This document shows positions 11,736 to 35,240 of a DNA stretch of 64,000 nucleotides, one piece after another. Made by a program: the position numbers and the translations under genes. The notes below the pieces were generated by a model. It saw only the letters and a list, made by a program, of their open reading frames with translations. It ran no database searches and was not told where the DNA came from. Source of the DNA: an uncultured Ruminococcus sp. (GTDB lineage Bacteria; Bacillota; Clostridia; Oscillospirales; Ruminococcaceae); NCBI GenBank assembly GCA_910584195.1, contig CAJTYV010000001.1, positions 239,728 to 303,727 of the forward strand, given 5' to 3'. The stretch's first letter is position 1; each line of letters starts with the position of its first letter.

Positions 11736-11817
11736 AGATGAGCGGATTGTGTCCAAAGACAGATCCCTATTGATGCAAGAATGCAGCGATGCGCTGCCCG
11801 AAAGGATCGTGATTATC

Positions 11818-14214: not shown

Positions 14215-14357
14215 GAACATGTTTAAAGAAACACCGATCATATTACGTCTGACGGCTTGACATACATCTTGCTTGCAATTTTCGCTGTATTGCTTTTAAC
14301 AGCATGCTTTAAAGTGGAGAAAAGCAGATAGTAAATTATTTACGGAGGTATAAATCA

Positions 14358-15569: not shown

Positions 15570-15857
15570 AGAGGAACGCTGACTATGAACTGCGCCCTCT
15601 CCGCACATTCCAAATGCAGGTCAGCTCGCAGTTCAGTCAGCGGTTTCCAAGAATACATATCTGTAAATACAGATTTATACTCGCCGCTATTGCAAAATGT
15701 CCAAAGGATGCCGAACAGAAATTTTGTATGTTAAAGCGGAGGAGAAAAGCATACTGTCGTATGGTAACGACGACAACGCAGAAAGACAAAATTTGTGTCA
15801 GCATAACTGGATATTTTGTAACAGCGGCGAGTATATGTATTCCGGGAGGGCTAAATA

Positions 15858-16499
15858 ATGTCAAAAAACACAATTTCTAATTCCGTTATCAGACGTTTAC
15901 CGAGATACCACCGTTTTCTCGGTGAATTGGAAGCCAACGGATATGTTCGGATCTCTTCGAGAGAACTTGCCGAAAAAATGGGACTTACCGCTTCTCAGAT
16001 ACGTCAGGACTTTAATTGTTTCGGTGAATTCGGTCAGCAGGGTTACGGCTATAATGTCAGTGCTCTCAAAGGAGAGATTGGAAGAATATTGGGGCTTGAC
16101 AGAGTGACCCCAATGATACTGCTCGGTGCAGGCAACCTCGGAAGAGCTATCGCTTCCCATGTTGATTTTCGCAGCAAAGGCTTTGAGCTGATCGGCATTT
16201 TTGATTCAAGCAAAGAGATTATCGGCAAAAAAATCGGCGATATCACTATATCAGATATAAGCGAACTTGATGCTTTTTGCAGCAAAACAAAACCTCAGGG
16301 AGCTGTTCTCTGTATTCCAAAAGAGGCTGCTGCAAAGGAAATAGAAAAACTTATTGGATTTGGAATACGGGCTTTCTGGAATTTCACTCACTATGACCTG
16401 CGTATTGACCATGCGGATATTGCGGTGGAAAACGTTCACCTTGGCGACAGCCTTGCTACATTATCCTATCGTCTCAATCCGAACAGCAACGTTTGTTAA
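15858..16499 (+). CDS. rex: Redox-sensing transcriptional repressor Rex
   Basis: N-terminal RRLPRYHRFL winged-helix motif and a Rossmann motif GAGNLGRA. Confidence 0.9.
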   Translation: MSKNTISNSVIRRLPRYHRFLGELEANGYVRISSRELAEKMGLTASQIRQDFNCFGEFGQQGYGYNVSALKGEIGRILGLDRVTPMILLGAGNLGRAIASHVDFRSKGFELIGIFDSSKEIIGKKIGDITISDISELDAFCSKTKPQGAVLCIPKEAAAKEIEKLIGFGIRAFWNFTHYDLRIDHADIAVENVHLGDSLATLSYRLNPNSNVC

Positions 16500-16561
16500 A
16501 AAAATCACTAACTTTTGGAAAGTGAATAAATAAATTCTTTAATTAAAGGTGGTAACTTTAA

Positions 16562-17938
16562 ATGGATTATCGTATTGAACATGACTCTATGGGAGAGGTC
16601 AGAGTACCTGCTGATAAATACTGGGCAGCTCAGACCGAACGAAGTCACGAAAATTTTCTTATCGGAGTTGGTATAGAGACTATGCCTCGTGAGATAACTC
16701 ACGCTTTCGGTATTTTAAAAAAGGCTGCTGCTATTGCAAATCATGAGCTTCGTCCCGAAAAAATGACGGATGAAAAGCTTTCCGCAATTTCTCAGGCTTG
16801 CGACGAGGTGATCAGCGGTTCTCTCAACGATCATTTTCCGCTTGTCGTATGGCAGACAGGCAGCGGAACTCAATCCAATATGAATGCTAACGAGGTAATT
16901 GCCAACCGCGGAAATGAAATTGCCGGAAGCAAACTTCTTCATCCAAATGATGACATTAATATGAGCCAGTCATCAAACGACACATTCCCTACGGCAATGC
17001 ACATTGCCGCTGTAATAGCAATTGAAGATAAGGTCATTCCAGCTGTTAACACGCTCATTGATACTTTTAAAAGACTTGAAGCTGAAAACGACGGTATCGT
17101 AAAAAGCGGACGCACACATCTTCAGGACGCTACTCCCATTAAGTTCTCTCAGGAAATAAGCGGCTGGAGAGCGTCTCTTGAAAAAGATAAGAAAATGATA
17201 CTTTCTTCCTGCGAAGAGCTTAAAGAACTTGCTCTCGGCGGAACTGCCGTTGGTACAGGACTCAATGCTCCGAAAGGATTTGCCGAAAAATCTGCAGCTG
17301 CTATAAGCGAACTTACAGGGAAGAAGTTTATTACAGCCGAAAATAAGTTCCACTCGCTTACTTCGAAGGACGAAATCGTTTTCGCTCACGGCGCATTAAA
17401 AGCTTTGGCTGCCGATATGATGAAAATAGCAAACGATGTACGCTGGCTGGCTTCGGGTCCCCGTGACGGTCTCGGAGAAATATTCATTCCCGAAAATGAA
17501 CCCGGTTCATCTATCATGCCCGGCAAAGTAAATCCTACTCAATGTGAACAGGCTACAATGGTTGCGGTACAGGTAATGGGCAATGATGTAGCCGTTGGAA
17601 TGGCAGCTTCTCAGGGTAACTTTGAACTTAACGTATTTATGCCCGTTTGTGCATATAATTTCTTACAGTCGGCTCGTCTGCTTGCCGAATCAATAATGTC
17701 CTTCAACAAAAACTGCGCCGTCGGCATTAAGGCAAACAAGGAGAAAATGCATCATAACCTGCATAATTCCCTTATGCTCGTTACTGCGCTCAATCCCTAC
17801 ATCGGCTATGAAAATGCCGCTAAAACCGCAAAAAAAGCTTTCAAGGACAATATTTCACTTAAAGAAGCCTGCGTGGAGCTTGGATTCCTCACGGAAGAAA
17901 AATTCGATGAGGTTTTCCATCCCGAGCAAATGGCGTAA
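16562..17938 (+). CDS. fumC: Fumarate hydratase class II
   Basis: Fumarase/aspartase family signature GSSIMPGKVNPTQCE. The SSNDTFPTAMHIAA motif favours FumC over AspA. Confidence 0.85.
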   Translation: MDYRIEHDSMGEVRVPADKYWAAQTERSHENFLIGVGIETMPREITHAFGILKKAAAIANHELRPEKMTDEKLSAISQACDEVISGSLNDHFPLVVWQTGSGTQSNMNANEVIANRGNEIAGSKLLHPNDDINMSQSSNDTFPTAMHIAAVIAIEDKVIPAVNTLIDTFKRLEAENDGIVKSGRTHLQDATPIKFSQEISGWRASLEKDKKMILSSCEELKELALGGTAVGTGLNAPKGFAEKSAAAISELTGKKFITAENKFHSLTSKDEIVFAHGALKALAADMMKIANDVRWLASGPRDGLGEIFIPENEPGSSIMPGKVNPTQCEQATMVAVQVMGNDVAVGMAASQGNFELNVFMPVCAYNFLQSARLLAESIMSFNKNCAVGIKANKEKMHHNLHNSLMLVTALNPYIGYENAAKTAKKAFKDNISLKEACVELGFLTEEKFDEVFHPEQMA

Positions 17939-17960
17939 TCTGTCATGAAAGGAAGATATT

Positions 17961-18755
17961 ATGCAGACATTTACATACTATCCCGGCTGTACGCTGAGAA
18001 CTAAGGCCAAGGATCTTGACGCTTACGCAAGAAAGTCTGCCGAAGCTCTTGGAATCAGCCTTGTCGAGCCTGAAAACTGGCAGTGCTGCGGCGGAGCGTA
18101 CACATCGGCAACAAACGAGCCTGCTACAAAACTTTCCGCCGTAAGAACTCTTATGGCTGCTAAAGAAACAGAGGGACTCGTTACCGTATGCTCCGCATGT
18201 CATAATGTCATTAAACAGACTAACTATGATATTTCCCGTAATGAGGCTATGGCTGTCAAAGTACAGAGATACCTCGGTCTGGAAGAAGCTTACACAGGTG
18301 ATACCAAGGTATATCATTATCTCGAACTGCTCCGAGACGTTGTAGGCTTTGACAATCTTAAAACCAAGGTTGTGAATCCTTTAAAAAACAAGAAGATCGC
18401 CGCTTATTACGGCTGTCTCCTGCTCCGCCCGTCTAAGGCACTTGCTATGGACGATCCGGAAAATCCAACGATTATGGAAGATTTCATCAGAGCGATAGGC
18501 GGAACTCCCGTTATCTACGCTCAGAGGAACGAGTGCTGCGGCGGTTACATCACATTGGAGGATAAAGCTCAGGCGGCTAAACGAAGCAATGCAGTTATGG
18601 AATCAGCCGAAAGCATGGGAGCAGATATGATAATAACAGCTTGTCCGCTTTGTCTGTACAACCTGAAAAAAAATTCAGGCAGCAGTCTGCCTGTGTACTA
18701 CTTCACAGAGCTTCTTGCGGAAGCTTTAGGTTTGAAGGAGGTCAGCAATGAATAA
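17961..18755 (+). CDS. hdrB: HdrB-like subunit with two CCG domains (heterodisulfide reductase B / SdhE-TfrB-like)
   Basis: Two CCG domains: YYPGCTL...CCGGAY...CSAC and YYGCLL...CCGGY...CPLC. Confidence 0.8.
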   Translation: MQTFTYYPGCTLRTKAKDLDAYARKSAEALGISLVEPENWQCCGGAYTSATNEPATKLSAVRTLMAAKETEGLVTVCSACHNVIKQTNYDISRNEAMAVKVQRYLGLEEAYTGDTKVYHYLELLRDVVGFDNLKTKVVNPLKNKKIAAYYGCLLLRPSKALAMDDPENPTIMEDFIRAIGGTPVIYAQRNECCGGYITLEDKAQAAKRSNAVMESAESMGADMIITACPLCLYNLKKNSGSSLPVYYFTELLAEALGLKEVSNE

Positions 18756-19131
18756 GAACGAAAAGGACTGGATAGATATTACAAGCGGAGTAAACGTCCG
18801 CAAGTGTATGAGATGCGGAAAATGCTCGGCGACTTGTCCCTCATATGATGAAATGGAATATCATCCTCATCAGTTTGTTTATATGGTCGAAAAGGGAAAC
18901 ATAGAGCCGCTTTTGAACTCAAAATCTCTGTACAAATGCCTGACCTGCTTCGCCTGCGTTGAAAGGTGTCCGCGCGGCGTTGAGCCTGCAAAGGTCGTTG
19001 AGGCTGTACGTCTCACGGCAGTCCGCAAACAAGGGAACAATCACCTGCTTCCCGACCAAATACCCGATATGCTCGATGACGATCTTCCGCAGCAGGCGAT
19101 CGTTACGGCATTCAGAAAATACACAAAGTAA
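18748..19131 (+). CDS. hdrC: HdrC-like 2x[4Fe-4S] ferredoxin subunit
   Basis: Cluster motifs CMRCGKCSATCP and CLTCFACVERCP. Its start overlaps the hdrB stop. Confidence 0.8.
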   Translation: MNKNEKDWIDITSGVNVRKCMRCGKCSATCPSYDEMEYHPHQFVYMVEKGNIEPLLNSKSLYKCLTCFACVERCPRGVEPAKVVEAVRLTAVRKQGNNHLLPDQIPDMLDDDLPQQAIVTAFRKYTK

Positions 19132-19143
19132 GGAGGAGCGGCT

Positions 19144-21135
19144 ATGCAGAAAATAGGTGTTTTTGTCTGCCATTGCGGTACTAATATCGCTGCTACGGTA
19201 GACGTTAAAGCTGTTGCAGAGGCTCTTTCCCATGAGCCGGGAGTAGTCATCTCTCAGGATTATCAATACATGTGCTCCGAATCAGGACAGGAACTTGTAA
19301 AAAATGCAATCAAAGAACACGGACTGACAGGAGTCGTTGTATGCTCCTGCTCGCCGAGAATGCATGAAAATACATTCAGAAAAGCGGCAGCTTCCGCAGG
19401 ACTTAACCCATATCTTGTAGAGATCGCAAATATCCGCGAACAATGCTCCTGGATCCACAAGGATATTGCCTCCGCTACGGATAAAGCCGTTATCCTCGGA
19501 AAAGCGGCTGTTGCTAAAGTCCACCTGAATACGCCTCTCACAGCAGGAGAAAGTCCGGTTGTAAAGCGTGCGCTTGTTATAGGCGGCGGAATAGCGGGAA
19601 TACAAACGGCTCTTGATATTGCCGAAGCCGGATTTGACGTTGACATTGTTGAAAAAGAACCTACTATCGGCGGAAAAATGGCTCAGATCGACAAAACCTT
19701 CCCCACACTCGACTGTGCCGCATGTATACTTACCCCTAAAATGGTAGAGGCTGCTCAGAACGAACATATCACTATCCATTCTTTCAGCGAAATCAGCGAT
19801 GTCAAGGGTTTTGTGGGCAACTTTACCGTTACTATAAAGAAAAAGGCACGTTACGTTGACGAAACAAAATGTACCGGATGCGGACTTTGTACCGAAAAAT
19901 GCCCTATGAAAAAAGTTCCCAACGAATTCAATATGGGACTTGACAACAGGACAGCCGTATATATTCCTTTTGCTCAGGCAGTTCCGAAAGTAGCAACAAT
20001 TGATCCGAATTACTGTATGATGCTGAAAAACGGCAAGTGCGGCGTATGTTCAAAGGTCTGCTCGGTCGGCGCGATCGACTATAAGCAGAAAGATAAGCTT
20101 ATAGAACAAAAATACGGCGCAATCGTTGTCGCTACAGGTTTCAATCCCATTAAGCTCGACAAATACGATGAATTTGCATACAGCTTCTGCCCCGATGTCG
20201 TTACGTCTCTTGAACTTGAAAGACTTATGAACGCAGCAGGTCCTAACGGAGGAACGCTGCTTCGTCCCTCTGACAAAACTCATCCTCATACAATCGTTTT
20301 CGTACAGTGCGTTGGTTCGCGGTGCGATGATGAAAAGGGCAAACAATACTGCTCTAAGATCTGCTGTATGTACACCGCAAAACACGCTATGCTTATCCGT
20401 GAGAAATACCCGGATACAGAGGTTTACGTATTTTACATAGATGTGCGTACACCCGGAAAGAATTTCGACGAATTCTACCGCCGTGCAGTTGAACAGTACA
20501 ACGTTCATTATATCAAAGGAATGGTCGGCAAGGTAACCCCAAAAGCTGACGGCAAAATTGATGTTCAGGCTTCTGATCTTATTTCAAACGAACAGCTTCA
20601 CATCAACGCCGATATGGTAGTTCTTGCGGCGGCAATCGAGCCTGACAAGACCGCACGTCCTCTTGCTACCATGCTCACAACTCAGATGGATACAAACGAC
20701 TTCTTCACAGAAGCTCACCCGAAGCTGCGCCCCGTAGAATCGGCTACGGCAGGCATCTTCCTTTCGGGAGCATGTCAGGGTCCGAAGGATATTCCTGAAA
20801 CTGTCGCTCAGGCAAGCGCCGCTGCGGCTAAGGCTATCGGACTTCTCTGCAAGAACAGCATTACATGCAATCCCTGCGTTGCTCATTCGGACGAACTTAT
20901 GTGCAACGGATGTTCAGCCTGCGAAAAGGTATGTCCTTACGGAGCTATAACATATCAGGATAAGGAATTCAGAATGCCTGACCGCTCCACAGCAATACGC
21001 CGCGTTGCGAGCGTAAACCCTGCCGTATGTCAGGGCTGCGGCGCATGTACGGTAGCATGTCCTTCGGGAGCTATGGATCTTAACGGCTTCTCAAACAGTC
21101 AGATTATGGCGGAGGTAGACGCGATATGCAAGTAA
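19144..21135 (+). CDS. hdrA: HdrA-like FAD-containing iron-sulfur subunit
   Basis: N-terminal KIGVFVCHCGTNIA, FAD motif ALVIGGGIAGIQTALDIAEAG, and several CxxCxxCxxxCP ferredoxin motifs across its 663 aa. Confidence 0.85.
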   Translation: MQKIGVFVCHCGTNIAATVDVKAVAEALSHEPGVVISQDYQYMCSESGQELVKNAIKEHGLTGVVVCSCSPRMHENTFRKAAASAGLNPYLVEIANIREQCSWIHKDIASATDKAVILGKAAVAKVHLNTPLTAGESPVVKRALVIGGGIAGIQTALDIAEAGFDVDIVEKEPTIGGKMAQIDKTFPTLDCAACILTPKMVEAAQNEHITIHSFSEISDVKGFVGNFTVTIKKKARYVDETKCTGCGLCTEKCPMKKVPNEFNMGLDNRTAVYIPFAQAVPKVATIDPNYCMMLKNGKCGVCSKVCSVGAIDYKQKDKLIEQKYGAIVVATGFNPIKLDKYDEFAYSFCPDVVTSLELERLMNAAGPNGGTLLRPSDKTHPHTIVFVQCVGSRCDDEKGKQYCSKICCMYTAKHAMLIREKYPDTEVYVFYIDVRTPGKNFDEFYRRAVEQYNVHYIKGMVGKVTPKADGKIDVQASDLISNEQLHINADMVVLAAAIEPDKTARPLATMLTTQMDTNDFFTEAHPKLRPVESATAGIFLSGACQGPKDIPETVAQASAAAAKAIGLLCKNSITCNPCVAHSDELMCNGCSACEKVCPYGAITYQDKEFRMPDRSTAIRRVASVNPAVCQGCGACTVACPSGAMDLNGFSNSQIMAEVDAICK

Positions 21136-21566
21136 ATGAAAATTTTGAACCTGTAGTAGTAGCATTCTGCTGTAACTGGTGTTCATATGCAGGTGCCGAC
21201 CTTTCCGGTACCAACCGATTGAATTATCCCACAAACGTCAAGATCATCCGAGTCCCCTGCTCATGCAGAGTAAACCCGATGTTCATTCTCCGCGCTTTCC
21301 AGAGAGGTGCGGACGGCGTTATTCTTTGCGGCTGTCATCCCGGAGACTGTCACTACACTTCGGGAAACTATTTCACAAGAAGAAGAATCACGCTTCTTTA
21401 CAGTATGCTTGATTTTCTCGGTATTGAGCGAAGCAGAACACGTCTTGAATGGGTCTCGGCAGCCGAGGGCGCAAAGTTTGCGGCTGTTATGAATCAGTTC
21501 GTTGAGGACGTTAAAAAGCTTGGCCCTAACCGTAGATTGGAGGATCTGAGATGCAGGAAGCAATAA
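21126..21566 (+). CDS. mvhD: MvhD/FlxD-like [2Fe-2S] subunit
   Basis: Motifs VVAFCCNWCSYAGAD and LCGCHPGDCHY. Confidence 0.8.
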   Translation: MQVNENFEPVVVAFCCNWCSYAGADLSGTNRLNYPTNVKIIRVPCSCRVNPMFILRAFQRGADGVILCGCHPGDCHYTSGNYFTRRRITLLYSMLDFLGIERSRTRLEWVSAAEGAKFAAVMNQFVEDVKKLGPNRRLEDLRCRKQ

Positions 21567-22522
21567 TCAAAAGAGCAAAGGAGCTGCTTGCAGACGGCAC
21601 GGTCAATCGTGTTATGGGCTGGAAAAAGGGCGAATTTGCCTACGATGCAACACCTGCCGTTTTTGAAACGGCGAAAGAAATCGACAGGGACTTTGTGTAT
21701 AATGACTTCACTCAGAACAACCTGTCAAAATATCTAATCAAGGAATCACGGAAAGATGGAAAAATTCTTGCCCTGTTGAAACCCTGTGACACTTACAGCT
21801 TCAATCAGCTCGTTAAGGAACACAGAATTATCCGCGAGAATGTCTACGTTATCGGCATTCCCGGAGGTCCTAAAATAGATATTGAAAAAATAAAGGCAAA
21901 GGGCATCACAGGTATACTCAGCGTGAAAAACGAGAATTATACTCTGAAAATCGAAACTCTTTACGGAGTTGAGACTATGCCTTTCTATGAAGCAGTAAGC
22001 GTTAAATGCGAAAGCTGCAAAAGCAAAAAGCACGTTGTATATGACGAACTTATCGGAGAGGACGGTGACGTCCTTGAATCCAACCGCTTCGATATGGTTG
22101 AAAAGCTTGAAAATATGACTGCTCAGGAACGTTACGATTTCTGGAGGAGCGAGCTTTCAAAGTGCATCCGCTGTAATGCCTGCCGTAATGTATGTCCTGC
22201 ATGTACGTGCGAAAACTGCGTATTTGACAATCCTAAGTCAGGTATCGACCAAAAAGCGGCTGCCGATTCCTTTGAGGAAAATATGTTTCACATTATCCGA
22301 GCTTTTCATGTAGCCGGAAGATGTACAGACTGCGGCGAATGCTCCAGAGTATGTCCTCAGAATATTCCGCTTCATCTGCTTAACAGAAAATTTATTAAGG
22401 ATATTAACTGCCTTTACGGCGAATATCAGGCAGGCGCTGACACTACTTCAAAAGCTCCTCTTACCGATTATAAAACAGACGACTGCGAACCGTCTGTCGT
22501 TCATGAAAGGGGCGCTGAATAA
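21551..22522 (+). CDS. FlxC/HydB-like iron-sulfur subunit
   Basis: Motifs CIRCNACRNVCPACTCENC and CTDCGECSRVCP. Confidence 0.65.
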   Translation: MQEAIIKRAKELLADGTVNRVMGWKKGEFAYDATPAVFETAKEIDRDFVYNDFTQNNLSKYLIKESRKDGKILALLKPCDTYSFNQLVKEHRIIRENVYVIGIPGGPKIDIEKIKAKGITGILSVKNENYTLKIETLYGVETMPFYEAVSVKCESCKSKKHVVYDELIGEDGDVLESNRFDMVEKLENMTAQERYDFWRSELSKCIRCNACRNVCPACTCENCVFDNPKSGIDQKAAADSFEENMFHIIRAFHVAGRCTDCGECSRVCPQNIPLHLLNRKFIKDINCLYGEYQAGADTTSKAPLTDYKTDDCEPSVVHERGAE

Positions 22523-23541
22523 TGCTTAAAATTTCTGCTTCAAATTTAAACTTGCTTTTTGACAGAATTGCCGGAAAACAGACCTTGTATATCCCGGTTG
22601 ACCGCGAACCGAACACTTCCGAGTATAAAAAATACAAGAGCGGAATGATTATGAGCAAAGCTCTTAACACGGTTCGCAGCGCTAAGGACTTCTTCTTTCC
22701 GCAAACTGAAAATCTTGCCGAATTCAAAGTAAGCGGCAAAACTATTGAAGTCAAGGACATCCGTGAGGAAAACGAAGATTTCGTTGTATTCGGAGTACGT
22801 GCCTGCGATGCAAGGAGCTTCGGCATTCTCGATAAAGTATTTCTTTCAGAACCTGTTGACAGCTTCTACAAAAACCGCCGTGAACACGGTACAATTGTAA
22901 CAATGGCATGTACGCGTCCTTCTGAAACCTGCTTCTGCACGGCATTCGGTATTGACCCCACTGTTCCGGGAGGAGATGTTTCGGTATTCTTTGACGGAGA
23001 AAATTATTTCTTCCTTGATAATACGCCGAAAGGCGAAGCCTTTATAGCTTCGGTTTCCGATATGCTGGAGGACGGCGATGCTTCAAAGCTTGCAGAAGTT
23101 CAGGAAAATGCACGAAATACCATGAAAAAGCTTCCACTTGCAAATCTTTCGACCGATTCTTTCGGCGGAGACAGACTTATGGAGCACTTCAAATCAGAAA
23201 AATGGGCTGAACTTTCAGAATCCTGCATAGGCTGCGGCACATGTACTTTCGTATGCCCAACCTGCCAATGCTATGATATTCGTGACTTTGACACTGGAAA
23301 CGGCATAAAGCGTTTCCGCTGCTGGGATTCATGTATGTATTCTGATTTTACGAAAATGGCTCACGGAAATTCCAGAAACTCTCAGCTTGAACGGTTCAGA
23401 CAGCGTTTCATGCACAAGCTTGTATACTTTCCCGCAAACAACAACGGTGAATTCGGCTGTGTAGGCTGCGGACGCTGCTTGTCAAAATGCCCCATATCCA
23501 TGAATATCGTTAAGGTTATGAAAGCGCTGGAGGATAAGTAA
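22522..23541 (+). CDS. FlxB/AsrA-like iron-sulfur subunit
   Basis: Motifs CIGCGTCTFVCPTCQC and CVGCGRCLSKCP. Confidence 0.65.
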   Translation: MLKISASNLNLLFDRIAGKQTLYIPVDREPNTSEYKKYKSGMIMSKALNTVRSAKDFFFPQTENLAEFKVSGKTIEVKDIREENEDFVVFGVRACDARSFGILDKVFLSEPVDSFYKNRREHGTIVTMACTRPSETCFCTAFGIDPTVPGGDVSVFFDGENYFFLDNTPKGEAFIASVSDMLEDGDASKLAEVQENARNTMKKLPLANLSTDSFGGDRLMEHFKSEKWAELSESCIGCGTCTFVCPTCQCYDIRDFDTGNGIKRFRCWDSCMYSDFTKMAHGNSRNSQLERFRQRFMHKLVYFPANNNGEFGCVGCGRCLSKCPISMNIVKVMKALEDK

Positions 23542-24368
23542 TGAATAATGATACTTTAATACCGCTCATCGGAGTGGTTACGGATATACGTCAGGATACT
23601 CCCGATGTCAAAACATTCAGGGTAAATGCTATCGAGGGCGGAAAAGTTTTCGAGCATATGCCCGGTCAATGCGCAATGCTGTCCATTCCCGGTGTGGGCG
23701 AGGGTATGTTTTCAATTACCTCATCTCCTACAAACAAGGAATTTATGGAATTCAGCATAAAAAAATGCGGCTGCCTTACCACTTGGCTTCATGCGATGGA
23801 CGTAGGTCAGCAGATAACCATAAGAGGTCCCTACGGCAACTATTTCCCTGTTGATACTGACCTCAAAGGCAAAGATCTGCTCTTTATTGCCGGAGGTATC
23901 GGACTTGCACCTCTCCGTTCCGTTATAAATTATGTGCGTGATAAAAGAGAAGATTACGGCGATGTTCAGATCGTCTACGGTTCACGTTCTAAAGACGACC
24001 TCGTTGACTATAAGGAAATTATCGATGAGTGGACAGCCGACCCTAATATCGAAGTCAACCTCACCATAGATAATCCGCAGGAGGGCTGGGACGGTCATGT
24101 CGGCTTTGTTCCGAACTATGTCAAGGAGCTTGCTCCATCTACTAATAAGACCGTTCTTGTATGCGGTCCGCCTATTATGATCAAATTTACCCTTGCCGCT
24201 CTCAAGGAACTCGGTTTTACCGATACCCAGGTCTATACAACTATGGAGCTTCGCATGAAGTGCGGCGTTGGCAAGTGCGGCCGCTGCAATATCGGCGATA
24301 AGTACGTCTGCAAGGACGGTCCTGTTTTCCGATTTGATCAGCTTGACGCGCTTCCCGATGAATATTGA
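23541..24368 (+). CDS. FlxA/AsrB/PyrK-like NAD(P)H:FAD oxidoreductase subunit with a C-terminal [2Fe-2S]
   Basis: FNR-like FAD and NAD domains (LFIAGGIGLAPL) and the C-terminal motif CGVGKCGRCNIGDKYVCKDGPVF. Confidence 0.75.
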   Translation: MNNDTLIPLIGVVTDIRQDTPDVKTFRVNAIEGGKVFEHMPGQCAMLSIPGVGEGMFSITSSPTNKEFMEFSIKKCGCLTTWLHAMDVGQQITIRGPYGNYFPVDTDLKGKDLLFIAGGIGLAPLRSVINYVRDKREDYGDVQIVYGSRSKDDLVDYKEIIDEWTADPNIEVNLTIDNPQEGWDGHVGFVPNYVKELAPSTNKTVLVCGPPIMIKFTLAALKELGFTDTQVYTTMELRMKCGVGKCGRCNIGDKYVCKDGPVFRFDQLDALPDEY

Positions 24369-24395
24369 CCCACTATAAAATTACTATCTGCAATT

Positions 24396-24448
24396 TTATC
24401 GGGGGACTCTGTCCCCCGCCCCCCCTGCCAAAGGGGTGACCCCTTTGG
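24396..24448 (+). terminator. Two consecutive perfect GC-rich hairpins downstream of the flxA-like gene
   Basis: gggggac tct gtccccc followed by ccaaagggg tga cccctttgg. Confidence 0.5.
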
Positions 24449-24654
24449 AATCTCTGTTGTCGTAAGTGAGACGGTATAAAGTCTCCGTATTTATTAATAG
24501 CTCATATTTCAATGACTTTATACCGTCTAACTTACGATAATGGGTTCAAAGAATTATCCCTTGACAAGAAGTACGAGGAATAAAGCTCTCGTTAAATTGC
24601 GGATAGTATTTACAGAGGGTCTGCCTAAATAGAAAATTACAAAGGAGTTAAAGC

Positions 24655-25329
24655 ATGGATAATATGGTTAATGTCTACCTGTTCGGCAAAAAATACAGCG
24701 TGCCGTCAGGACTGACTATTATGACAGCTATGGAATATGCCGGCTATGAGCTTGTTAGAGGCTGCGGATGCAGAAACGGCTTCTGCGGCGCATGCGCCAC
24801 TATATACAGAATCAAGGGACAGCAGCAGCTTAACGCCTGCCTTGCATGTCAGACTGAGGTTCAAGAGGGAATGTACGTTGCTGCACTTCCTTTCTTTCCC
24901 CTTGTCAAGCAGGTCTACAACATTGAAGAAATAAAACCCACTGAACAGATCATGATGCAGCTTTATCCTGAAATATACGCCTGCATCGGCTGTAACGCAT
25001 GTACAAAGGCATGTACTCAGGAGCTTAACGTTATGCAGTATATCGCATATGCTCAGAGAGGCGAATACGAAAAATGCGCTGAGGAAAGCTTTGACTGCGT
25101 AATGTGCGGCGTATGTTCATCGCGTTGTCCCGCCGGCATCTCACACCCTCAGGTAGCTATGCTTGCACGCCGTCTTAACGGTAAATACCTTGCTCCCGGC
25201 TGCGGTCATCTTGAGGATCGTGTAAAGGAGATCAACGAGGGAACTTTCGAAGAACTCATCGAAAGCCTTATGCAGAAGCCCATTGACGAGATCAAGGAGC
25301 TTTACAATACGCGCGAAATTGAAAAGTAA
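24655..25329 (+). CDS. frdB: Fumarate reductase / succinate dehydrogenase iron-sulfur subunit
   Basis: N-terminal [2Fe-2S] motif CGCRNGFCGACA, then CIGCNACTKAC and CVMCGVCSSRCP. Confidence 0.8.
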   Translation: MDNMVNVYLFGKKYSVPSGLTIMTAMEYAGYELVRGCGCRNGFCGACATIYRIKGQQQLNACLACQTEVQEGMYVAALPFFPLVKQVYNIEEIKPTEQIMMQLYPEIYACIGCNACTKACTQELNVMQYIAYAQRGEYEKCAEESFDCVMCGVCSSRCPAGISHPQVAMLARRLNGKYLAPGCGHLEDRVKEINEGTFEELIESLMQKPIDEIKELYNTREIEK

Positions 25330-25342
25330 GGAGGAGCTGGCA

Positions 25343-26947
25343 ATGTATAAAATTGAAAAGCTTAACGAACTGGCAAAAATAGTTGCAGAAAAAAGAGCCG
25401 CAAATGCCGAATTAGAGCCGAAAAGAATGACCGCTGAAGAAAAGGACACTCTCCTTGCCGCTTTTCATCCCGATTATAAGCAGGACGAATTTACCGTGCT
25501 TTCCGCGGGAGTGAACAAAGGCGAAAAAGTTCCCTCACAGCTTGCAGAACTTTTACAGGGAAAAAGCAGAATTTCCGCCGATGACGTTGACCTCTCATCT
25601 CCCGACTATGAAACCGACGTTCTTATAATCGGAGGAGGCGGAGCAGGCGCATCTGCTGCCATTGAAGCCGATGAAGCCGGCGTAAAGGCTATGATCGTTA
25701 CAAAGCTTCGTATAGGCGATGCCAATACAATGATGGCGGAAGGCGGCATACAGGCTGCTGATAAACCCAACGACTCCCCCGCTATCCATTATATAGACGC
25801 TTTTGGAGGAGGTCACTTTGCCGCTAAGCCCGAGCTTGTAAAGAATCTTGTTACAAAAGCTCCCGAAGCAATTCTTTGGCTCAATAAGCTTGGCGTTGAG
25901 TTTGACAAGGAAGCTGACGGAACAATGGTTACAACTCACGGCGGCGGTACTTCAAGAAAAAGAATGCATGCCGCAAAGGATTATTCCGGAGCTGAGATAA
26001 TGCGCACTCTCCGCGATGAGGTTCTTAACAGAGGTATTCCTGTTATTGATTTCACATCTGCTATCGAGATAATTCTCGATGAAAACGGCAGGGCGGCAGG
26101 CGCAGTCCTTATGAATATGGAAACAAAGGAACTTCTTGTTGCCCGCGCAAAAACTGTTATTATTGCTACAGGCGGTGCAGGTCGTCTGCATTATCAGGGA
26201 TTTCCGACCTCAAATCATTACGGAGCAACTGCGGACGGACTTATACTCGGTTACCGCGTCGGCGCAGGTCTGCTTTATGCAGATACGCTTCAATATCACC
26301 CAACAGGCACAGGCTATCCCGAACAGATTTTCGGTGCGCTTGTTACGGAGAAAGTCCGCTCACTGGGGGCAAAGCTTGTTAATATTGACGGAGAAGTTTT
26401 CATGAACCCGCTTGAGACCCGTGATGTAACAGCTTCTTCAATTATACGCGAATGTACGGAAAGAAACAAAGGCGTTGAAACACACCTCGGCAAGGCTGTA
26501 TGGCTCGATACACCTATGATCGAGCTTATCCACGGCGAAGGTACTATTGAAAAGAGAATACCTGCAATGATGCGTATGTTCGGTAAATACGGCATCGACA
26601 TACGCAAAGAGCCTATCCTTGTTTATCCTACGCTTCACTATCAGAACGGAGGACTTAATATCTCGGTTGACTGCTCGACAGACGTTGAAAATCTGTATGC
26701 GGCAGGCGAGGTTGCAGGCGGTATTCATGGCAGAAACCGTCTCATGGGCAATTCTCTGCTTGACGTAATCGTATTCGGAAGAGATGCAGGCAAGAATGCG
26801 GCTGCAAAGGCTAAGGACATATCAGCGCCTGAAAAGCTTACTCTTGCTCATATCGAAAGATTCAATAAGGAACTTGCAGAAGCAGGCATTGCAAGCGATA
26901 CCGTATCCCCGATGCTTCTTCCGCATTATGCAAGAAAATCAAAGTAA
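25343..26947 (+). CDS. frdA: Fumarate reductase flavoprotein subunit, soluble type with non-covalent FAD
   Basis: aaggagg RBS at 25328-25334 and an ATG at 25343. FAD fold VLIIGGGGAGASAAIEA and the QYHPTG and HYQNGGL motifs. The covalent-FAD site reads DANTMMAEGG with no histidine. No FrdC/FrdD anchor is encoded. Confidence 0.8.
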   Translation: MYKIEKLNELAKIVAEKRAANAELEPKRMTAEEKDTLLAAFHPDYKQDEFTVLSAGVNKGEKVPSQLAELLQGKSRISADDVDLSSPDYETDVLIIGGGGAGASAAIEADEAGVKAMIVTKLRIGDANTMMAEGGIQAADKPNDSPAIHYIDAFGGGHFAAKPELVKNLVTKAPEAILWLNKLGVEFDKEADGTMVTTHGGGTSRKRMHAAKDYSGAEIMRTLRDEVLNRGIPVIDFTSAIEIILDENGRAAGAVLMNMETKELLVARAKTVIIATGGAGRLHYQGFPTSNHYGATADGLILGYRVGAGLLYADTLQYHPTGTGYPEQIFGALVTEKVRSLGAKLVNIDGEVFMNPLETRDVTASSIIRECTERNKGVETHLGKAVWLDTPMIELIHGEGTIEKRIPAMMRMFGKYGIDIRKEPILVYPTLHYQNGGLNISVDCSTDVENLYAAGEVAGGIHGRNRLMGNSLLDVIVFGRDAGKNAAAKAKDISAPEKLTLAHIERFNKELAEAGIASDTVSPMLLPHYARKSK

Positions 26948-27004
26948 ATAAATTTATGGGACGCCCTTAAAAGCGTCCCACTAATTTGTAAAAAGAAAGT
27001 AAGA

Positions 27005-28225
27005 GTGATAAAAATGGATTTTTTTAATGGAATACTTTCCATTCATGGAGTTTCATTCCTTATGGTCTCGGTTATCGCAATTGCGGCTCTGGGATATGTA
27101 ATTGGCAGAATAACGATAAAAGGCATTTCACTTGGAACAGCCGGAGTTTTCCTTGTTGCCCTTGCATACGGCTGCTTTTTCCACAAAGAGCTTTCAAATG
27201 AAATAAATGCAGACTTTGTAAGCGATGCATTAAAGATAGTAGATAATCTTGGACTTATTCTTTTTGTTACGGCAGTAGGCTTTATTGCAGGTCCTAATTT
27301 TTTTGGTAATTTTAAGAAGAATTTCAAGTCGTATGTAGTTCTTGCAGTTATAATAATTTTCAGCGGCGGTCTCGCATGTGCCGGCTGCATTCTTGCAGGA
27401 CGCAATTTCACGGATCGTTCACCGGAGGAATTTACAGCAATACTCACGGGAATACTTTCGGGTGCGCTTACAAGTACGCCCGGATTTTCAGCGGCAAAAG
27501 ACGCAGTAGGTACAAAGGAACTTCAGGACGCAGTTTCTGTAGGCTACGCTATCGCCTATATCTTCGGAGTTATCGGAGTTGTTCTCTTTGTTCAGCTCAT
27601 ACCAAAAATGTTAAAAGCCAATATGTCAGACGAACGTAAGCTTCTCGCTAACATCGACTCCAAAAGTGAAAGGAAAGCTGAAAAAGGCAAGCTTCTTGAA
27701 ATGGACGATTTTGGAATTATGCCTTTTGCGCTTGCGGCGTTTATCGGTATTTTTATCGGTTCTTTCAAGTTCAGGAATTTCTCGCTTTCAACAACCGGCG
27801 GCTGTCTGCTGGCATCTTTGATATTTGGTCATTTCGGAAAAATCGGAAAAATAAACTTAATGCCCAAAGACGGAACTCTTAAGGTTTTCCGTGAACTCGG
27901 TCTGATGTTCTTCCTAATAGGAGCAGGAGTATCAGGCGGAGCTAAATTCGTGAAATATTTTGATCCTATATATTTTGTGTATGGAATAATCATGACGATC
28001 GTTCCCATGATATTAGGTTTCCTGTTTGCTAAATATGTGCTTAAGCTGAGTCTTTTAAACAATCTTGGCTCTATCACCGGCGGTATGACTTCTACTCCTG
28101 CGCTCGGTACTCTTATCAGCACAGCCGGTACCGAGGACGTTGCTTCCGCTTATGCTGCAACTTACCCTGTAGCTCTTATATCGGTAGTTATAGTTTCTCA
28201 GGTATTGATAATGCTCTTCAAATAA
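27005..28225 (+). CDS. AAE-family (AspT/YidE/YbjL-like) transporter, two tandem transmembrane repeats
   Basis: Polytopic 406-aa protein with a two-fold repeated architecture and no TrkA-C domains. Candidate C4-dicarboxylate or aspartate exchanger. Confidence 0.6.
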   Translation: MIKMDFFNGILSIHGVSFLMVSVIAIAALGYVIGRITIKGISLGTAGVFLVALAYGCFFHKELSNEINADFVSDALKIVDNLGLILFVTAVGFIAGPNFFGNFKKNFKSYVVLAVIIIFSGGLACAGCILAGRNFTDRSPEEFTAILTGILSGALTSTPGFSAAKDAVGTKELQDAVSVGYAIAYIFGVIGVVLFVQLIPKMLKANMSDERKLLANIDSKSERKAEKGKLLEMDDFGIMPFALAAFIGIFIGSFKFRNFSLSTTGGCLLASLIFGHFGKIGKINLMPKDGTLKVFRELGLMFFLIGAGVSGGAKFVKYFDPIYFVYGIIMTIVPMILGFLFAKYVLKLSLLNNLGSITGGMTSTPALGTLISTAGTEDVASAYAATYPVALISVVIVSQVLIMLFK

Positions 28226-31318: not shown

Positions 31319-32683
31319 TTACTTTACAATATCTTCGTCACCAAACGGATCTCCGCATTCTGCGCAGAATTTCGGAGGATTATAAGGGTCGGCAGGTTCC
31401 CAGCCGCATTTATCGCACTTATAGAGCGGCTCTCCCACAGGTTTCGCCTTACCGCATTCGGCACAGAATTTCCCTTTATTTACCACGCCGCATGAACAAG
31501 TCCAGCCGTTTTCAGCTGGCTTTGGATTACCGCAGTTTGAACAGAATTTTGAAGTATTCTGCTGACCGCACGAGCATTTCCAGCTGCCGTCATCGGGCTT
31601 CGACTTACCGCAGTTCGCACAGAATTTGCCATTATTTGAAGTTCCGCATGAACATTTCCAAACGCCTGACTGAGCCTGCTGCGCACCCATGGAGTAAAGA
31701 TTCTGAGTATTTAGTCCGCCTGCCTGCTGAGCCATATTCATACCGAAGAATCCCATAGCCGCACCGCCCTTGTTGTCCGCCGCCTTGACCATTGCCTCGT
31801 TCTGAGCTTCGACCATTTTTGCGGCAGCATTGAGGGGATCTCTGTTCCATGCAAGATCTTCGTATTTCTTTATTCTGTCCTCGTCTTCTTTTGGAATAGA
31901 AACGGATCGGATAGCTACCTTGCAAATCTCAATACCTCTGTCCTCAAGCCATTCTTTTTTCAAAACTTCTTTCATGGCGTTAGTGATAGCAACGGTATTA
32001 TTCGGAAGCTGATCATATGTCACAAGAGTGGAAAGCTTTGCAAAAGCAGGCTGAAGCTGATTCATAAACTCACTGTAAAGCGTATTGTCGAGCTGATCGC
32101 GATTATAGACTGCCGTAACGTTTCCGCACACATTTGCATAAAACTTCATAGGATCTGCAATCTTATACGAATAAACGCCATTGCAGCGAAGTCCGACAGT
32201 AAAGCTTCTGCCAAGATCGGCATAGCTCACACGGAACGGAACCGGCTGAGAAGTTCCGAATTTATTATCGGTTATTTCTTTTATGTTAAAGTAATAAATA
32301 CGCTGGTCGTGACCCGTATCACCGCCGAATGAAATACGCTTTCCAATAGTTTTGAAAGTATCCTTTATACCGCTGCCAAGACTTCCTGCGAAAATACTTG
32401 GTTCTGTTGACATATCATAAGTGTATTCGCCCGGAACTGCACATATTTCAACAACCTGTCCCTGATCGATGATTATCATACACTGTCCTTCGTTAACAAC
32501 TATAACGCTGCCGTTTGTAATAATGTTATCGCTGCCCCGGGTATTGGATGATTTTTTTCCCGTCCTTTTATAACCTTTAACAACAAGAGTTGAGGGAGGG
32601 ATAGCATCGCAGCAGAAAAATTCTTTCCACTGATCTGAAAGCGCCGAGCCTGCTCCTGTGAAAACTGCCTTTATAAGACCCAT
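31319..32683 (-). CDS. SPFH/band-7 (COG4260, YdjI-like) protein fused to four C-terminal zinc-ribbon repeats
   Basis: N-terminal SPFH-like domain, then four repeats of W(K/T)CSCGxxNxGKFCxxCGxxKP, then CDKCGW...KFCAECG. Confidence 0.7.
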   Translation of the reverse strand: MGLIKAVFTGAGSALSDQWKEFFCCDAIPPSTLVVKGYKRTGKKSSNTRGSDNIITNGSVIVVNEGQCMIIIDQGQVVEICAVPGEYTYDMSTEPSIFAGSLGSGIKDTFKTIGKRISFGGDTGHDQRIYYFNIKEITDNKFGTSQPVPFRVSYADLGRSFTVGLRCNGVYSYKIADPMKFYANVCGNVTAVYNRDQLDNTLYSEFMNQLQPAFAKLSTLVTYDQLPNNTVAITNAMKEVLKKEWLEDRGIEICKVAIRSVSIPKEDEDRIKKYEDLAWNRDPLNAAAKMVEAQNEAMVKAADNKGGAAMGFFGMNMAQQAGGLNTQNLYSMGAQQAQSGVWKCSCGTSNNGKFCANCGKSKPDDGSWKCSCGQQNTSKFCSNCGNPKPAENGWTCSCGVVNKGKFCAECGKAKPVGEPLYKCDKCGWEPADPYNPPKFCAECGDPFGDEDIVK

Positions 32684-32852: not shown

Positions 32853-35240
32853 TTATTTATCTGTAACTTCGGGAAGTTCTTTAAGTATTTTCGCGTCTAA
32901 TTTCTGAATTGCAAGAGCATCGCTTGTCTTAACTCCATCGCCGGTATTGCAGCAATCAGCATTTTTAGCACCGAGTGCCGAAAGTCCATATTTATCTGAA
33001 TTTCCAAGAGCCTGCAAAATCGCTGTAGAATCGGCAATAGTTACCTTACCGTCACAATTTGCGTCGCCGTAAAGAATCTTAGGCGCTTCTCCCAGAGATT
33101 CAAAAGTATTGCCGTTTTCCTCGGCATAAGCTTGTGCAGTAGAATTATCATATCCGCAGATTATAACATCGCTATCCAAATTATCTATTTTACAGTTTTC
33201 ATTTCTGATAATAATTTTTTCAATATTGTATAAGTTACTTATTTCATTTACGGAACTTGCAGCGTCTACTACTTTGACATTGCCCCATTCATAGCAATAA
33301 TCATCAAGTACATCTGTACCCTGATACATTACAAATTCGTCAATAACGGAACCCGAAAAAATTCCATACTCCATAACGCTCAGATATTCGGGCATATTTA
33401 TCCTTTTAAGATTTTCGCATCCTGCAAAAGCCATAACGCCCAGTCTGGAAAGTCGTTTTGGAAGAATTACCTCCTCCAAATAATTGTTATTGCTAAATGC
33501 ATAACCGTATACCCAGTCAACGTCATTCGGAACGGTAAACGAAATTCCTTTTTTAGATTCGGGATACATTACGAGAACCTTTTTACCTTCTCTTTCTCTG
33601 TACAATACGCCGTCCTCTGAAAAATAAGCAGGATTCCCTTTTTCAACTTCAACTCTGCCGATATTTGAATCGTCCAGTGCAAATCTTCCTATATTTTCAG
33701 CCGATGCCGGTATCTTGACGGAATTTATCCCGCTTCCGCTTAATGCACCGTCACATATTGCAGCCGTGCCGGGTTTTATCTCAATATCCTGACCGGATAT
33801 ATCGCCCTTGAATCCAAGCAGCGTTGTTCCAAAATATATCGGTCCATCAGGAAGATTTTCAATAAATGGAATATATTCCATATAATATGTCCAACTGTCA
33901 TCATCTTCATTGTATTGAGAGTGTCTGCGTCCGAATGCGTCAAGCGAAAACAACGTTGAATCCGTATTAAGAAGATTGATCTCTTCAAGAGATATACATC
34001 CCACAAAACAATTTTGATTCCAACCCCAATGTCTGACAGAATCGGGGATCGTTACATTAGTCACCTTGCGGCAGTTCTCAAAAGCAGCTCCGCCGATGTA
34101 GTCCGTTCCGTCAAAAATTTCTACACCGCCCTCTTTTCCCTCGGGACACACTTTCAAACCGTCAACCAGACCATCATATCCTTTGCTGTACAAAATGCCG
34201 TCATGGGATTCATAACGTTCATTTTTTTCATCAACATTGATGGCAGTCAGGTTAGGACAATCTGCGCCAAAATACCAATTAATATATTCAACGCTTGCCG
34301 GAAGATTTACCGAAGTTACATTCGGAAGATTGCTGAAAACTCCATAACCTATGTCTATAACGCCGTCCTCAATAGTAACATCACCCTCTAATGCTGTCCG
34401 CATAACCCATATTAAATCTTTGCCTTCACTGTAAGAAGAATTCTTATAAAACATTCCGTTTGAAAATGAATAATTTTGATTGTTTTCATCTATGTTGATT
34501 TCTTCAAGAGCGCTGAGTTCAGCAAACATATAACTATTCATATACTCTACCGATTCCGGAATAGTTATTGATTTAAGAGAATAACAATAGCGAAAAGCGT
34601 CATTTATATCAGTTACGCCGTTCGGTATTTCAATTTCAGTAATTCCAATACAATTAGAAAACGCATCTCCGCTGATATAAGTAAGCGTTGAAGGCAGTAT
34701 GACAGACGTAATTTCTTCACAATATGCAAAAGCATTTGTACCTATTCTCTCTACCCCTTCGGGAACAATATACTCGCCCTGCATTTTTCCCGGACACCTT
34801 ATAAGCTTAGTCATATCTTTGCTGAAAAGCACACCGTCCAAAGAAACGAAATTCTCATTTTCACTGCTTACGATTATCTCCTCAAGGGAACTGCACCCAT
34901 TAAATGCATATGAATCAATTTCTGATATAGTATCAGGCAAACTTACGGAAACAAGAGAAGAGCAATTACTAAAAGCGCGATAACCTATCTCTTGAACTTT
35001 TATGTCGTCAATTTCCGAAGGTATCACAAGTTCGGAAGCGTCCCCGGAATAACCTGTGATTTCAATATAGCTATCGTCCCAGTCGCTTATATAATACTCC
35101 AGACCATCTTCTGTCACATAATCAGCCGCGTTAACATTTGTCAAAGGCAGCCGTTCTGTAAAACAGACCTTATTCACAGCAACCGCAAGACTCATTACAG
35201 CAGCAATCCCGAATAAAGCCGCTTTTGTTGTTTTTTTCAT
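32853..35240 (-). CDS. Secreted BspA-type leucine-rich-repeat protein with a C-terminal dockerin
   Basis: Signal peptide, repeated ...AF.NC.SL..I.IP..V..IG..AF... LRR units, and a C-terminal YGDANCDGKVTIADSTAILQALGNSDKYGLS...NADCCNTGDGVKTSDALAIQKLDAKIL dockerin. Confidence 0.8.
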   Translation of the reverse strand: MKKTTKAALFGIAAVMSLAVAVNKVCFTERLPLTNVNAADYVTEDGLEYYISDWDDSYIEITGYSGDASELVIPSEIDDIKVQEIGYRAFSNCSSLVSVSLPDTISEIDSYAFNGCSSLEEIIVSSENENFVSLDGVLFSKDMTKLIRCPGKMQGEYIVPEGVERIGTNAFAYCEEITSVILPSTLTYISGDAFSNCIGITEIEIPNGVTDINDAFRYCYSLKSITIPESVEYMNSYMFAELSALEEINIDENNQNYSFSNGMFYKNSSYSEGKDLIWVMRTALEGDVTIEDGVIDIGYGVFSNLPNVTSVNLPASVEYINWYFGADCPNLTAINVDEKNERYESHDGILYSKGYDGLVDGLKVCPEGKEGGVEIFDGTDYIGGAAFENCRKVTNVTIPDSVRHWGWNQNCFVGCISLEEINLLNTDSTLFSLDAFGRRHSQYNEDDDSWTYYMEYIPFIENLPDGPIYFGTTLLGFKGDISGQDIEIKPGTAAICDGALSGSGINSVKIPASAENIGRFALDDSNIGRVEVEKGNPAYFSEDGVLYREREGKKVLVMYPESKKGISFTVPNDVDWVYGYAFSNNNYLEEVILPKRLSRLGVMAFAGCENLKRINMPEYLSVMEYGIFSGSVIDEFVMYQGTDVLDDYCYEWGNVKVVDAASSVNEISNLYNIEKIIIRNENCKIDNLDSDVIICGYDNSTAQAYAEENGNTFESLGEAPKILYGDANCDGKVTIADSTAILQALGNSDKYGLSALGAKNADCCNTGDGVKTSDALAIQKLDAKILKELPEVTDK

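Follow-up and report, generated by a model that had tools for sequence, protein, structure and literature searches.

A FrdA-like flavoprotein without the flavin-linking histidine, encoded in a Ruminococcus Flx-Hdr cluster, as the candidate catalytic subunit of a soluble NADH:fumarate reductase

In this study, we analyzed a DNA stretch of 64,000 nucleotides (nt) from an uncultured Ruminococcus sp. (GenBank assembly GCA_910584195.1, contig CAJTYV010000001.1, positions 239,728 to 303,727 of the forward strand; hereafter the window, whose own numbering is used below), and focused on a FrdA-like flavoprotein of 534 amino acids (aa) encoded at 25343-26947 (+), which was characterized by translation of its open reading frame, Pfam and NCBIfam searches, alignments and AlphaFold2 (AF2) modelling. 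Judging from sequence comparisons, we consider it fairly likely that this protein is the catalytic subunit, carrying non-covalent flavin adenine dinucleotide (FAD), of a soluble cytoplasmic NADH:fumarate(/ferredoxin) oxidoreductase that is coupled to Flx-Hdr proteins by direct wiring. Clostridia of the rumen and gut release succinate, the precursor of propionate, as a major product of fermentation, and how fumarate reduction is combined with energy gain in bacteria that may lack quinones and cytochromes is not settled. This rumen Ruminococcus probably forms succinate with the enzyme and, at the same time, re-oxidizes NADH and reduces ferredoxin. If fumarate reduction by NADH were indeed coupled to ferredoxin reduction, each succinate formed would provide extra low-potential electrons for H2 formation or Rnf-driven ATP synthesis, and the redox and ATP balances used in rumen models and in succinate bioproduction would change.

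The gene for the FrdA-like protein has a strong Shine-Dalgarno sequence (AAGGAGG) 8 nt 5' of its ATG, and its N-terminus appears to be real because homologues align from residue 1. More than 8000 database relatives of the protein were scored, hence it is no chance reading frame. A genome scan of a species-representative collection gave at least 587 matching stretches, a frequency which implies that the enzyme would be quantitatively important, and the best 80 loci (hereafter the 80 loci) were analyzed further. Full-length identity to the FrdA-like protein was 75-96% in these loci, which were labelled as Ruminococcus, Oscillospiraceae, Christensenellales-like and other Clostridia.

FAD_binding_2 was the one structural Pfam family found in the protein (E 8.7e-71). 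It covered residues 92-472 (25616-26758, +), the FAD-binding and capping domains with H319, T335, E336, R339, H432 and R466, and the Rossmann strand DVLIIGGGGAG begins at residue 92. The AF2 model was confident (predicted local distance difference test, pLDDT, 93; predicted template modelling score, pTM, 0.92), and its top Foldseek match was E. coli FrdA (1kf6; E 3.6e-36, TMq 0.72); the nearest solved structures, over approximately 450 columns, were E. coli FrdA, the SdhA of complex II and Shewanella flavocytochrome c3. None of the NCBIfam curated cut-offs was reached. The top score was that of TfrA (NF004900), with 347 bits against a cut-off of 718 at profile positions 6-412 of 546, and a protein used as positive control for this cut-off, P0214, scored 765 bits. 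The protein was far under the cut-off of every FrdA/SdhA equivalog model (279 versus 567 bits for TIGR01812, sdhA_frdA), and was also under those of nadB (TIGR00551, 278 versus 453) and flavocytochrome c (TIGR01813, 208 versus 285). It has no haem domain and shares with the last family an Asn discussed below; by these comparisons it resembles that family in its predicted flavin chemistry, yet is no member of it. On the whole, these scores place the protein firmly inside the FrdA/SdhA/NadB superfamily and in no curated family, and the homology proposed in a preliminary description of this DNA, which had been made from the letters alone, was upheld by Pfam, NCBIfam, HMMER alignment and Foldseek alike.

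The position that holds the 8-alpha-histidyl-FAD His in FrdA and SdhA is occupied by Asn128 (codon AAT, 25724-25726, +), which was found in 79 of the 80 loci. This residue lies in the motif DANTMMAEGG (residues 126-135, nt 25718-25747), where the preliminary description had noted the absence of the His needed for covalent FAD. HMMER alignment to E. coli FrdA agreed with that observation, as 'klrigdaNtmmaegg' stands over 'kvypmrsHtvaaegg' and Asn128 falls in the column of His44. In a 16-sequence family alignment (A1) that included three His-bearing SdhA/TfrA-like homologues, the same column contained His in these three and Asn in every member of the query's own family. The flavinylation residue is absent rather than displaced, as no His occurs up to 20 residues on either side of position 128. 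Asn128 falls directly on an Asn in the flavocytochrome c3 of Shewanella frigidimarina ('iekepviggNaklaagg'), whose FAD is non-covalent, and the flavinylation position is likewise devoid of His in P0214 (GKGGCTPMAEGG), the protein that exceeds the equivalog cut-off of TfrA. Both findings support the earlier likening of the protein to soluble fumarate reductases with non-covalent FAD, and we infer that the FAD of the FrdA-like protein would be bound in the same manner. In E. coli FrdA, mutants of His44 lose the covalent bond and have a lower flavin potential, with succinate oxidation abolished and fumarate reduction kept. The missing bond would thus point to a one-way fumarate reductase, because a non-covalent FAD implies a low flavin potential.

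The fumarate site itself appeared to be intact. H232, T244, E245, R287, H355 and R390 of E. coli FrdA correspond to H319, T335, E336, R339, H432 and R466, all of which were unchanged in the 80 loci; the same residues were invariant in A1 (n=16), except that T335 was not among its invariants. The QYHPTG and HYQNGG motifs, previously reported as retained, are indeed present at residues 317-322 and, as LHYQNGG, at 431-437. A point overlooked by the preliminary description is that the whole C-terminal domain of SdhA, FrdA, NadB and TfrA is missing. No Pfam match to Succ_DH_flav_C was found in the protein, whose chain stops about 40 aa past the FAD domain, whereas P0183, P0201 and P0209 run on for about 150 aa in A1. 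A short tail (residues 496-534; 26828-26944, +), with a helix at 502-513 in the AF2 model, replaces the canonical domain of approximately 130-160 aa.

Could the protein instead be an L-aspartate oxidase (NadB-like) or some other enoate reductase, with the AAEx-family transporter encoded next to it moving aspartate? NadB too is without the flavinylation His and has the same active-site residues, its model gave the 278 bits mentioned above, and the AAEx family is named for an aspartate:alanine exchanger. We nevertheless regard this as very unlikely, as that score does not reach the 453 bits of the cut-off, every locus with flanking sequence also encodes a fumarase, both carboxylate-binding His/Arg pairs are retained, and the FrdA-like protein is always accompanied by an adjacent iron-sulfur (FeS) partner, while NadB is not known to need one. 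Besides, the column of NadB Glu121, which we take to be the aspartate-specific (amino-group) residue, contains His199 or Gly200 and no Glu.

The second distinctive part of the protein is its N-terminal extension (residues 1-88; 25343-25606, +), in which His42-Pro43 (nt 25466-25471), Gly56 and Gly60 are invariant in nine divergent members that are as little as 23% identical within the extension. The nine-member alignment gave the motif HP(D/E/N)(Y/F)...G-x-N-x-G. An extension of 60 aa had been described earlier; its existence stood, and its length had to be corrected to about 88 aa, as both the Rossmann strand and FAD_binding_2 start at residue 92. The accompanying claim that it has no counterpart in textbook FrdA was borne out, since the alignments with FrdA, SdhA and NadB begin at query residues ~77-93. 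The alignment with flavocytochrome c3 alone extends back to residue 67, and residues 67-91 (the last helix and the linker) align with the segment just upstream of the flavin domain of that protein, which is presumably the linker from its cytochrome (haem) domain. Mean identity over the 80 loci was 64% in the extension and 86% in the core, and His42 was retained in 79 of them (L035 has R42). AF2 modelled the extension as ordered, with helices at 2-22, 31-41 and 65-71 and two short strands; the pLDDT was 73 in the first ten residues and 87-96 elsewhere. The extension alone gave nothing significant in Pfam (E<=10, nine members) or in a PDB profile search. A relocated canonical C-terminal domain was also considered and rejected, as hhalign of the extension against C-terminal domains gave a probability of 0.2%.

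The partner of the FrdA-like protein is a FrdB/TfrB-N-like FeS subunit of 224 aa, encoded immediately upstream (24655-25329, +; Pfam Fer2_4 and Fer4_7). Its gene adjoins frdA-like in all of the 80 loci, in which C39, C44, C47, C65, C110, C113, C116, C120, C148, C151, C154 and C158 are invariant; this set corresponds to one [2Fe-2S] motif and two [4Fe-4S] motifs of the CxxCxxCxxxC type. Pfam found no CCG domain in the FrdB-like protein, and the TfrB model (NF004898) matched it only at positions 19-94. A frdB-like gene was also adjacent in four of five divergent, unfused, extension-bearing members, the exception being P0154. Another member, P0122, is a natural FrdB::FrdA fusion of 727 aa (L086:5250-7433) with its junction just before the extension, and its 7.7-kb contig contains no Hdr or Flx genes. 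On the other hand, P0168, the sole extension-less short homologue with readable context, has no FrdB neighbour. Since extension-bearing members adjoin a frdB-like gene, one of them being fused to it, and the extension-less one does not, the extension would most likely be a docking surface for the FrdB-like subunit. It may possibly also compensate for the lost C-terminal domain.

FrdBA pairs of this type occurred in other contexts as well. In a gammaproteobacterial metagenome-assembled genome (MAG; L081:9366-12891), a three-gene operon contains frdB-like, an extension-bearing frdA-like (46% identical) and a NuoF-like gene (Complex1_51K and NADH_4Fe-4S). The operon, which includes no Hdr gene, has the appearance of a minimal soluble NADH:fumarate reductase. 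A second arrangement, that of P0121 (56% identical; L085:811-9771, a contig of Logan SRR24270839), consists of a korD/A/B/C-type 2-oxoacid:ferredoxin oxidoreductase (OFOR), hdrA, mvhD, hdrC, hdrB, frdB-like and frdA-like, with no Flx genes. Its gene order resembles the reductive tricarboxylic acid cycle cluster reported for Ca. Endoriftia.

In the window, frdA-like closes the series of enzyme genes in a cluster whose order, fumC-hdrB-hdrC-hdrA-mvhD-three Flx-like genes-frdB-frdA, was the same in every locus with enough flank, and whose gaps are short or overlapping. All genes are on the plus strand. The cluster begins with fumC, a class II fumarate hydratase (16562-17938; TIGR00979, 708 bits versus a cut-off of 665), which lies 23 nt before hdrB and was directly upstream of it in every related locus where hdrB was detected. 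The HdrB-like protein (17961-18755) has two Pfam CCG domains (non-cubane [4Fe-4S] sites), of which all ten motif cysteines were invariant in 58 loci; its best NCBIfam matches, MFR SdhE (134 bits) and HdrB (131 bits), were both under cut-off. The end of hdrB is overlapped by the gene for a HdrC-like protein with two [4Fe-4S] motifs (18748-19131; Pfam Fer4_8/17; TIGR03290, 68 bits, under cut-off). HdrA (663 aa; 19144-21135), a FAD and multi-[4Fe-4S] protein that is presumed to be the bifurcating flavoprotein, scored 801 bits with NCBIfam HdrA2 (E 8e-241, cut-off 1100) and is followed by a MvhD/FlxD-like [2Fe-2S] connector (21126-21566; Pfam FlpD, E 1.7e-54); the two were found at 73-98% identity in all loci reaching them. 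Next come a 323-aa 4Fe-4S dicluster protein in the position of FlxC (21551-22522; Pfam Fer4_8/9), which was collinear in all loci, a FlxB-like FeS protein similar to AsrA and sulfhydrogenase beta (22522-23541; Pfam Fer4_22; ShyB 179 bits and AsrA 139 bits, both under cut-off), and a FlxA-like protein similar to AsrB and HydG, with FAD, NAD(P) and [2Fe-2S] sites (23541-24368; Pfam FAD_binding_6, NAD_binding_1 and DHODB_Fe-S_bind), which is the presumed entry point of NAD(P)H. Downstream of frdA-like, both here and in most related loci, is the gene for the AAEx-family (Asp-Al_Ex) transporter, a putative succinate exporter (27005-28225; Pfam Asp-Al_Ex twice, E 4e-62). The conserved cluster contains no gene for a thiol carrier or a DsrC-like protein.

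A soluble NAD(P)H-driven fumarate reductase is the simplest reading of this gene set, because a fumarase, an intact fumarate site, an FeS partner and an NAD(P)H-binding Flx-like subunit are encoded together, and the universal presence of a full HdrA and MvhD suggests that flavin-based bifurcation is involved. According to this model, NAD(P)H would be oxidized at the FlxA-like subunit and its electrons would travel along the FeS proteins of FlxB/C-like and MvhD-like type until they reach the flavin of HdrA, where each pair would be split. One electron would go downhill through HdrC, HdrB and FrdB to the FAD of FrdA and on to fumarate supplied by the co-encoded fumarase, and the other uphill to ferredoxin (Fd). 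FrdBA would thereby be the high-potential terminal of the Flx-Hdr complex in this Ruminococcus, and succinate would leave the cell through the adjacent AAEx transporter. The net reaction would be 2 NADH + fumarate + 2 Fd(ox) -> 2 NAD+ + succinate + 2 Fd(red). Such bifurcation is feasible because the potential of the fumarate/succinate couple is +33 mV and that of NAD is -320 mV (PMC5861303).

Two other ways of using the same proteins were compared with this scheme. First, the enzyme might be a simple soluble NAD(P)H:fumarate reductase that does not bifurcate, in which Flx and Hdr are a mere electron wire and ferredoxin is not reduced. The gammaproteobacterial frdB-frdA-nuoF-like operon suggests that FrdBA can be the basis of an uncomplicated NADH:fumarate enzyme, and the soluble NADH-fumarate reductase of Hydrogenobacter thermophilus, which is said to have five subunits, offers a precedent. 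We consider this unlikely, as it is hard to explain why a complete HdrA and MvhD would be kept at such high identity if the bifurcating flavin were idle, and the ~350 mV that separate NADH from fumarate would go unused. Second, the system might work oxidatively, the flavoprotein being a succinate dehydrogenase that feeds Hdr in confurcation. SdhA belongs to the same superfamily, and aconitase and isocitrate dehydrogenase genes are located upstream. However, a flavin that lacks the covalent His should have too low a potential to oxidize succinate, as known from the E. coli His44 mutants, and succinate (+33 mV) is unable to reduce NAD+ (-320 mV) even with the assistance of ferredoxin. In addition, the literature consulted regards Ruminococcus flavefaciens as producing succinate, and Pseudoclostridium thermosuccinogenes expresses the same layout while making succinate (PMC7282089). 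An oxidative role thus seems highly improbable, even more so than an aspartate oxidase.

A further question was how electrons would reach FrdBA. In the style of methanogen Tfr and Hdr, Flx-Hdr could reduce a disulfide at HdrB, and the thiols could then be re-oxidized to drive FrdBA. Several observations are compatible with such thiol-mediated coupling: both CCG motifs of HdrB are intact, TfrA is the closest curated family of the flavoprotein (347 bits), the P. thermosuccinogenes paper has Flx-Hdr electrons going 'to ferredoxin (and thiols)' (PMC7282089), and the model for Endoriftia permits a DsrC-like carrier (PMC11636981). However, the FrdB-like protein is without the thiol-oxidizing CCG domain of TfrB, which would leave a single CCG protein for both half-reactions, and the gammaproteobacterial FrdBA is paired with a NuoF-like protein and no CCG protein. 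We therefore think that a thiol intermediate is improbable, and favor direct wiring over a diffusible thiol because FrdB has no CCG domain, no carrier gene is found in the cluster, and FrdBA pairs elsewhere with NuoF-like alone or with OFOR-HdrA-MvhD-HdrCB.

Comparison with known systems showed that the cluster itself is of a type that has already been proposed. The 'succinate operon' described for P. thermosuccinogenes contains a gene for fumarate hydratase, seven genes of the Flx-Hdr type, two for fumarate reductase and one for a putative succinate transporter (PMC7282089); it is expressed and CO2-responsive, and a coupling of fumarate reduction with the reduction of ferredoxin has been proposed for it (PMC7282089, citing the preprint of Koendjbiharie and van Kranenburg, 2019). 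Compared by published description, its gene inventory and order agree with those of the window genes from 16562 to 28225. Both hosts are fermentative, succinate-forming Clostridia, and the same bifurcation from NADH to fumarate plus ferredoxin is proposed for P. thermosuccinogenes; particular to the window are Rex upstream and an insert of 286 nt within the cluster. A similar Hdr-Flx and tfrAB cluster has been proposed, and found to be co-expressed, in Ca. Endoriftia (PMC11636981, PMC13147460). In Desulfovibrio vulgaris, FlxABCD-HdrABC comprises the same seven protein types, with a proposed bifurcation from NADH to ferredoxin and a high-potential acceptor (Ramos et al., 2015, cited in PMC7282089); that acceptor is thought to be a protein disulfide (DsrC), whereas here it would be fumarate via FrdBA. 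The Hydrogenobacter thermophilus enzyme can be likened to the present one by description only in being soluble, NADH-driven, multi-subunit and quinone-free (Miura et al., 2008, cited in PMC13147460). No purified or assayed bifurcating fumarate reductase of the Flx-Hdr type was found in the literature searched. Thus, the cluster type and its enzyme have already been proposed, and the present protein adds a member rather than a new kind.

At the level of the subunits, FrdA-like combined features of several known fumarate reductases. Methanothermobacter TfrAB (NF004900 and NF004898) is the source of its top curated score, and is soluble, and a TfrA-scoring protein is likewise without the His; in TfrB, as in the FrdB-like protein, a second [4Fe-4S] motif replaces the 3Fe cluster. 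However, TfrA has the C-terminal domain, has no N-terminal extension and carries Gly or Cys rather than Asn at the His position, and TfrB has its CCG domains fused, whereas here the HdrB-like CCG protein is encoded by a separate gene (17961-18755) six genes upstream. Shewanella flavocytochrome c3 (1qjd, 1d4c), which is periplasmic, is likewise soluble and one-way, with non-covalent FAD and Asn at the 128 column; it also has no SdhA-type C-terminal domain, and bears an N-terminal segment before the Rossmann fold, the end of which aligns with query residues 67-91. In contrast with FrdA-like, it receives electrons from a fused tetrahaem domain and has no FeS subunit, the identity is only ~28%, and the TIGR01813 score given above stayed under its cut-off. 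E. coli FrdA (1kf6) and SdhA provided the best structural match, an identical catalytic His/Arg/Thr/Glu set and a [2Fe-2S]-containing FeS partner, but the covalent 8-alpha-histidyl FAD at His44, the C-terminal helical domain, the membrane anchoring, the link to quinol and the reversibility of E. coli FrdA are held not to apply here.

The details that are new here are the FrdB::FrdA fusion, the pairing of FrdBA with NuoF-like or OFOR-Hdr proteins in other lineages, and one MAG with His128 (see below). A broader and more tentative hypothesis is that extension-bearing FrdBA is a portable, thiol-independent cartridge that plugs an FeS chain into Flx-Hdr in gut and rumen Clostridia, into OFOR-Hdr in another lineage, and into a lone NuoF-like protein in Gammaproteobacteria. 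The non-cubane clusters of the clostridial HdrB would then be a relay to FrdB and not a disulfide-reducing site, and His42-Pro43 would be part of the FAD/FeS interface. We would give this somewhat less than even chances; if true, it would represent an Hdr-type bifurcating enzyme with a carbon-carbon double bond, not a disulfide, as the high-potential acceptor. The replacement of His by Asn, the lost C-terminal domain, the His-Pro extension and the natural FrdB::FrdA fusion provide handles for mutagenesis and purification.

Several points weigh against the proposed Flx-Hdr-coupled enzyme. First, FrdA-like, HdrA, HdrB and HdrC are all under the curated cut-offs, so that the names of the subunits rest on similarity, and the non-covalent flavin, the electron donor, the reduction of ferredoxin and the stoichiometry are all features that we infer. 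Second, coupling to Hdr is not intrinsic to the flavoprotein, since neither Hdr nor Flx genes are found in the vicinity of some FrdBA pairs that bear the extension. Third, HdrB keeps both complete CCG motifs, as do true disulfide reductases, and this would allow a thiol/disulfide intermediate. Fourth, one locus, the only one among the 80, has His at position 128 (L078; GDAHTMMAEGG, codon CAC at L078:8374-8376), which differs by a single base and could be either an error of assembly or a genuine return to a flavin that might be covalent. Finally, the structured insert described below, which has terminator-like hairpins, could uncouple the transcription of flxA-like and frdB-like in this strain.

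The locus with His128 is from MAG RGIG9453, of yak caecum. A paired swap of His42 and Asn128 was also considered; as R42 occurs in one MAG (L035) and H128 in another (L078), no coupling was observed.

The insert is a highly structured, strain-specific sequence of 286 nt between the flxA-like stop and the frdB-like start (24369-24654; minimum free energy -104.6 kcal/mol, z -8.6). The corresponding gap in relatives is mostly ~15-60 nt, and most relatives have no insert. It contains nested and outer inverted repeats, two GC hairpins and a long hairpin (24461-24484 / 24514-24537). No Rfam family reached the threshold in this sequence, which gave only sub-threshold hairpin matches to miRNA models, and its 22-mer had no second copy pair within the window and no exact match in metagenome contigs. 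The insert could be an element resembling a miniature inverted-repeat transposable element, or a terminator/promoter cassette. A second, GC-rich hairpin was detected by a terminator-like scan between frdA-like and the transporter gene (26957-26980, +).

Upstream of fumC is the gene for Rex, a redox-sensing (NADH/NAD+) transcriptional repressor (15858-16499, +; NCBIfam NF003990, 278 bits versus a cut-off of 233). Rex was found upstream of the cluster in Ruminococcus loci, and more distant relatives have a weaker Rex homologue downstream. A scan for the Rex operator (TTGTKAANNNNTTMACAA, <=2 mismatches) gave 4 matches versus 1.9 expected, which is not significant; a weak Rex-box-like site with 2 mismatches is located at 16493-16510, between rex and fumC. 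The stretch immediately preceding the fumarase gene (11749-16499) encodes aconitase, NADP-isocitrate dehydrogenase and Rex, and thus an oxidative branch to 2-oxoglutarate and a reductive branch to succinate would be neighbours beside a redox sensor.

Two proteins encoded on the minus strand further downstream were also observed. One of them (31319-32683; 454 aa) has about five tandem zinc-ribbon-like repeats, 'W-x-C-x-C-G...GKFC-x-x-CG', in its C-terminal half. The other (32853-35240; 795 aa) is an apparently secreted leucine-rich-repeat protein that ends with a dockerin-like 'GDANCDGKVTIADSTAILQ' module, which would presumably fit a cellulosome-bearing genome of the Ruminococcus flavefaciens group.

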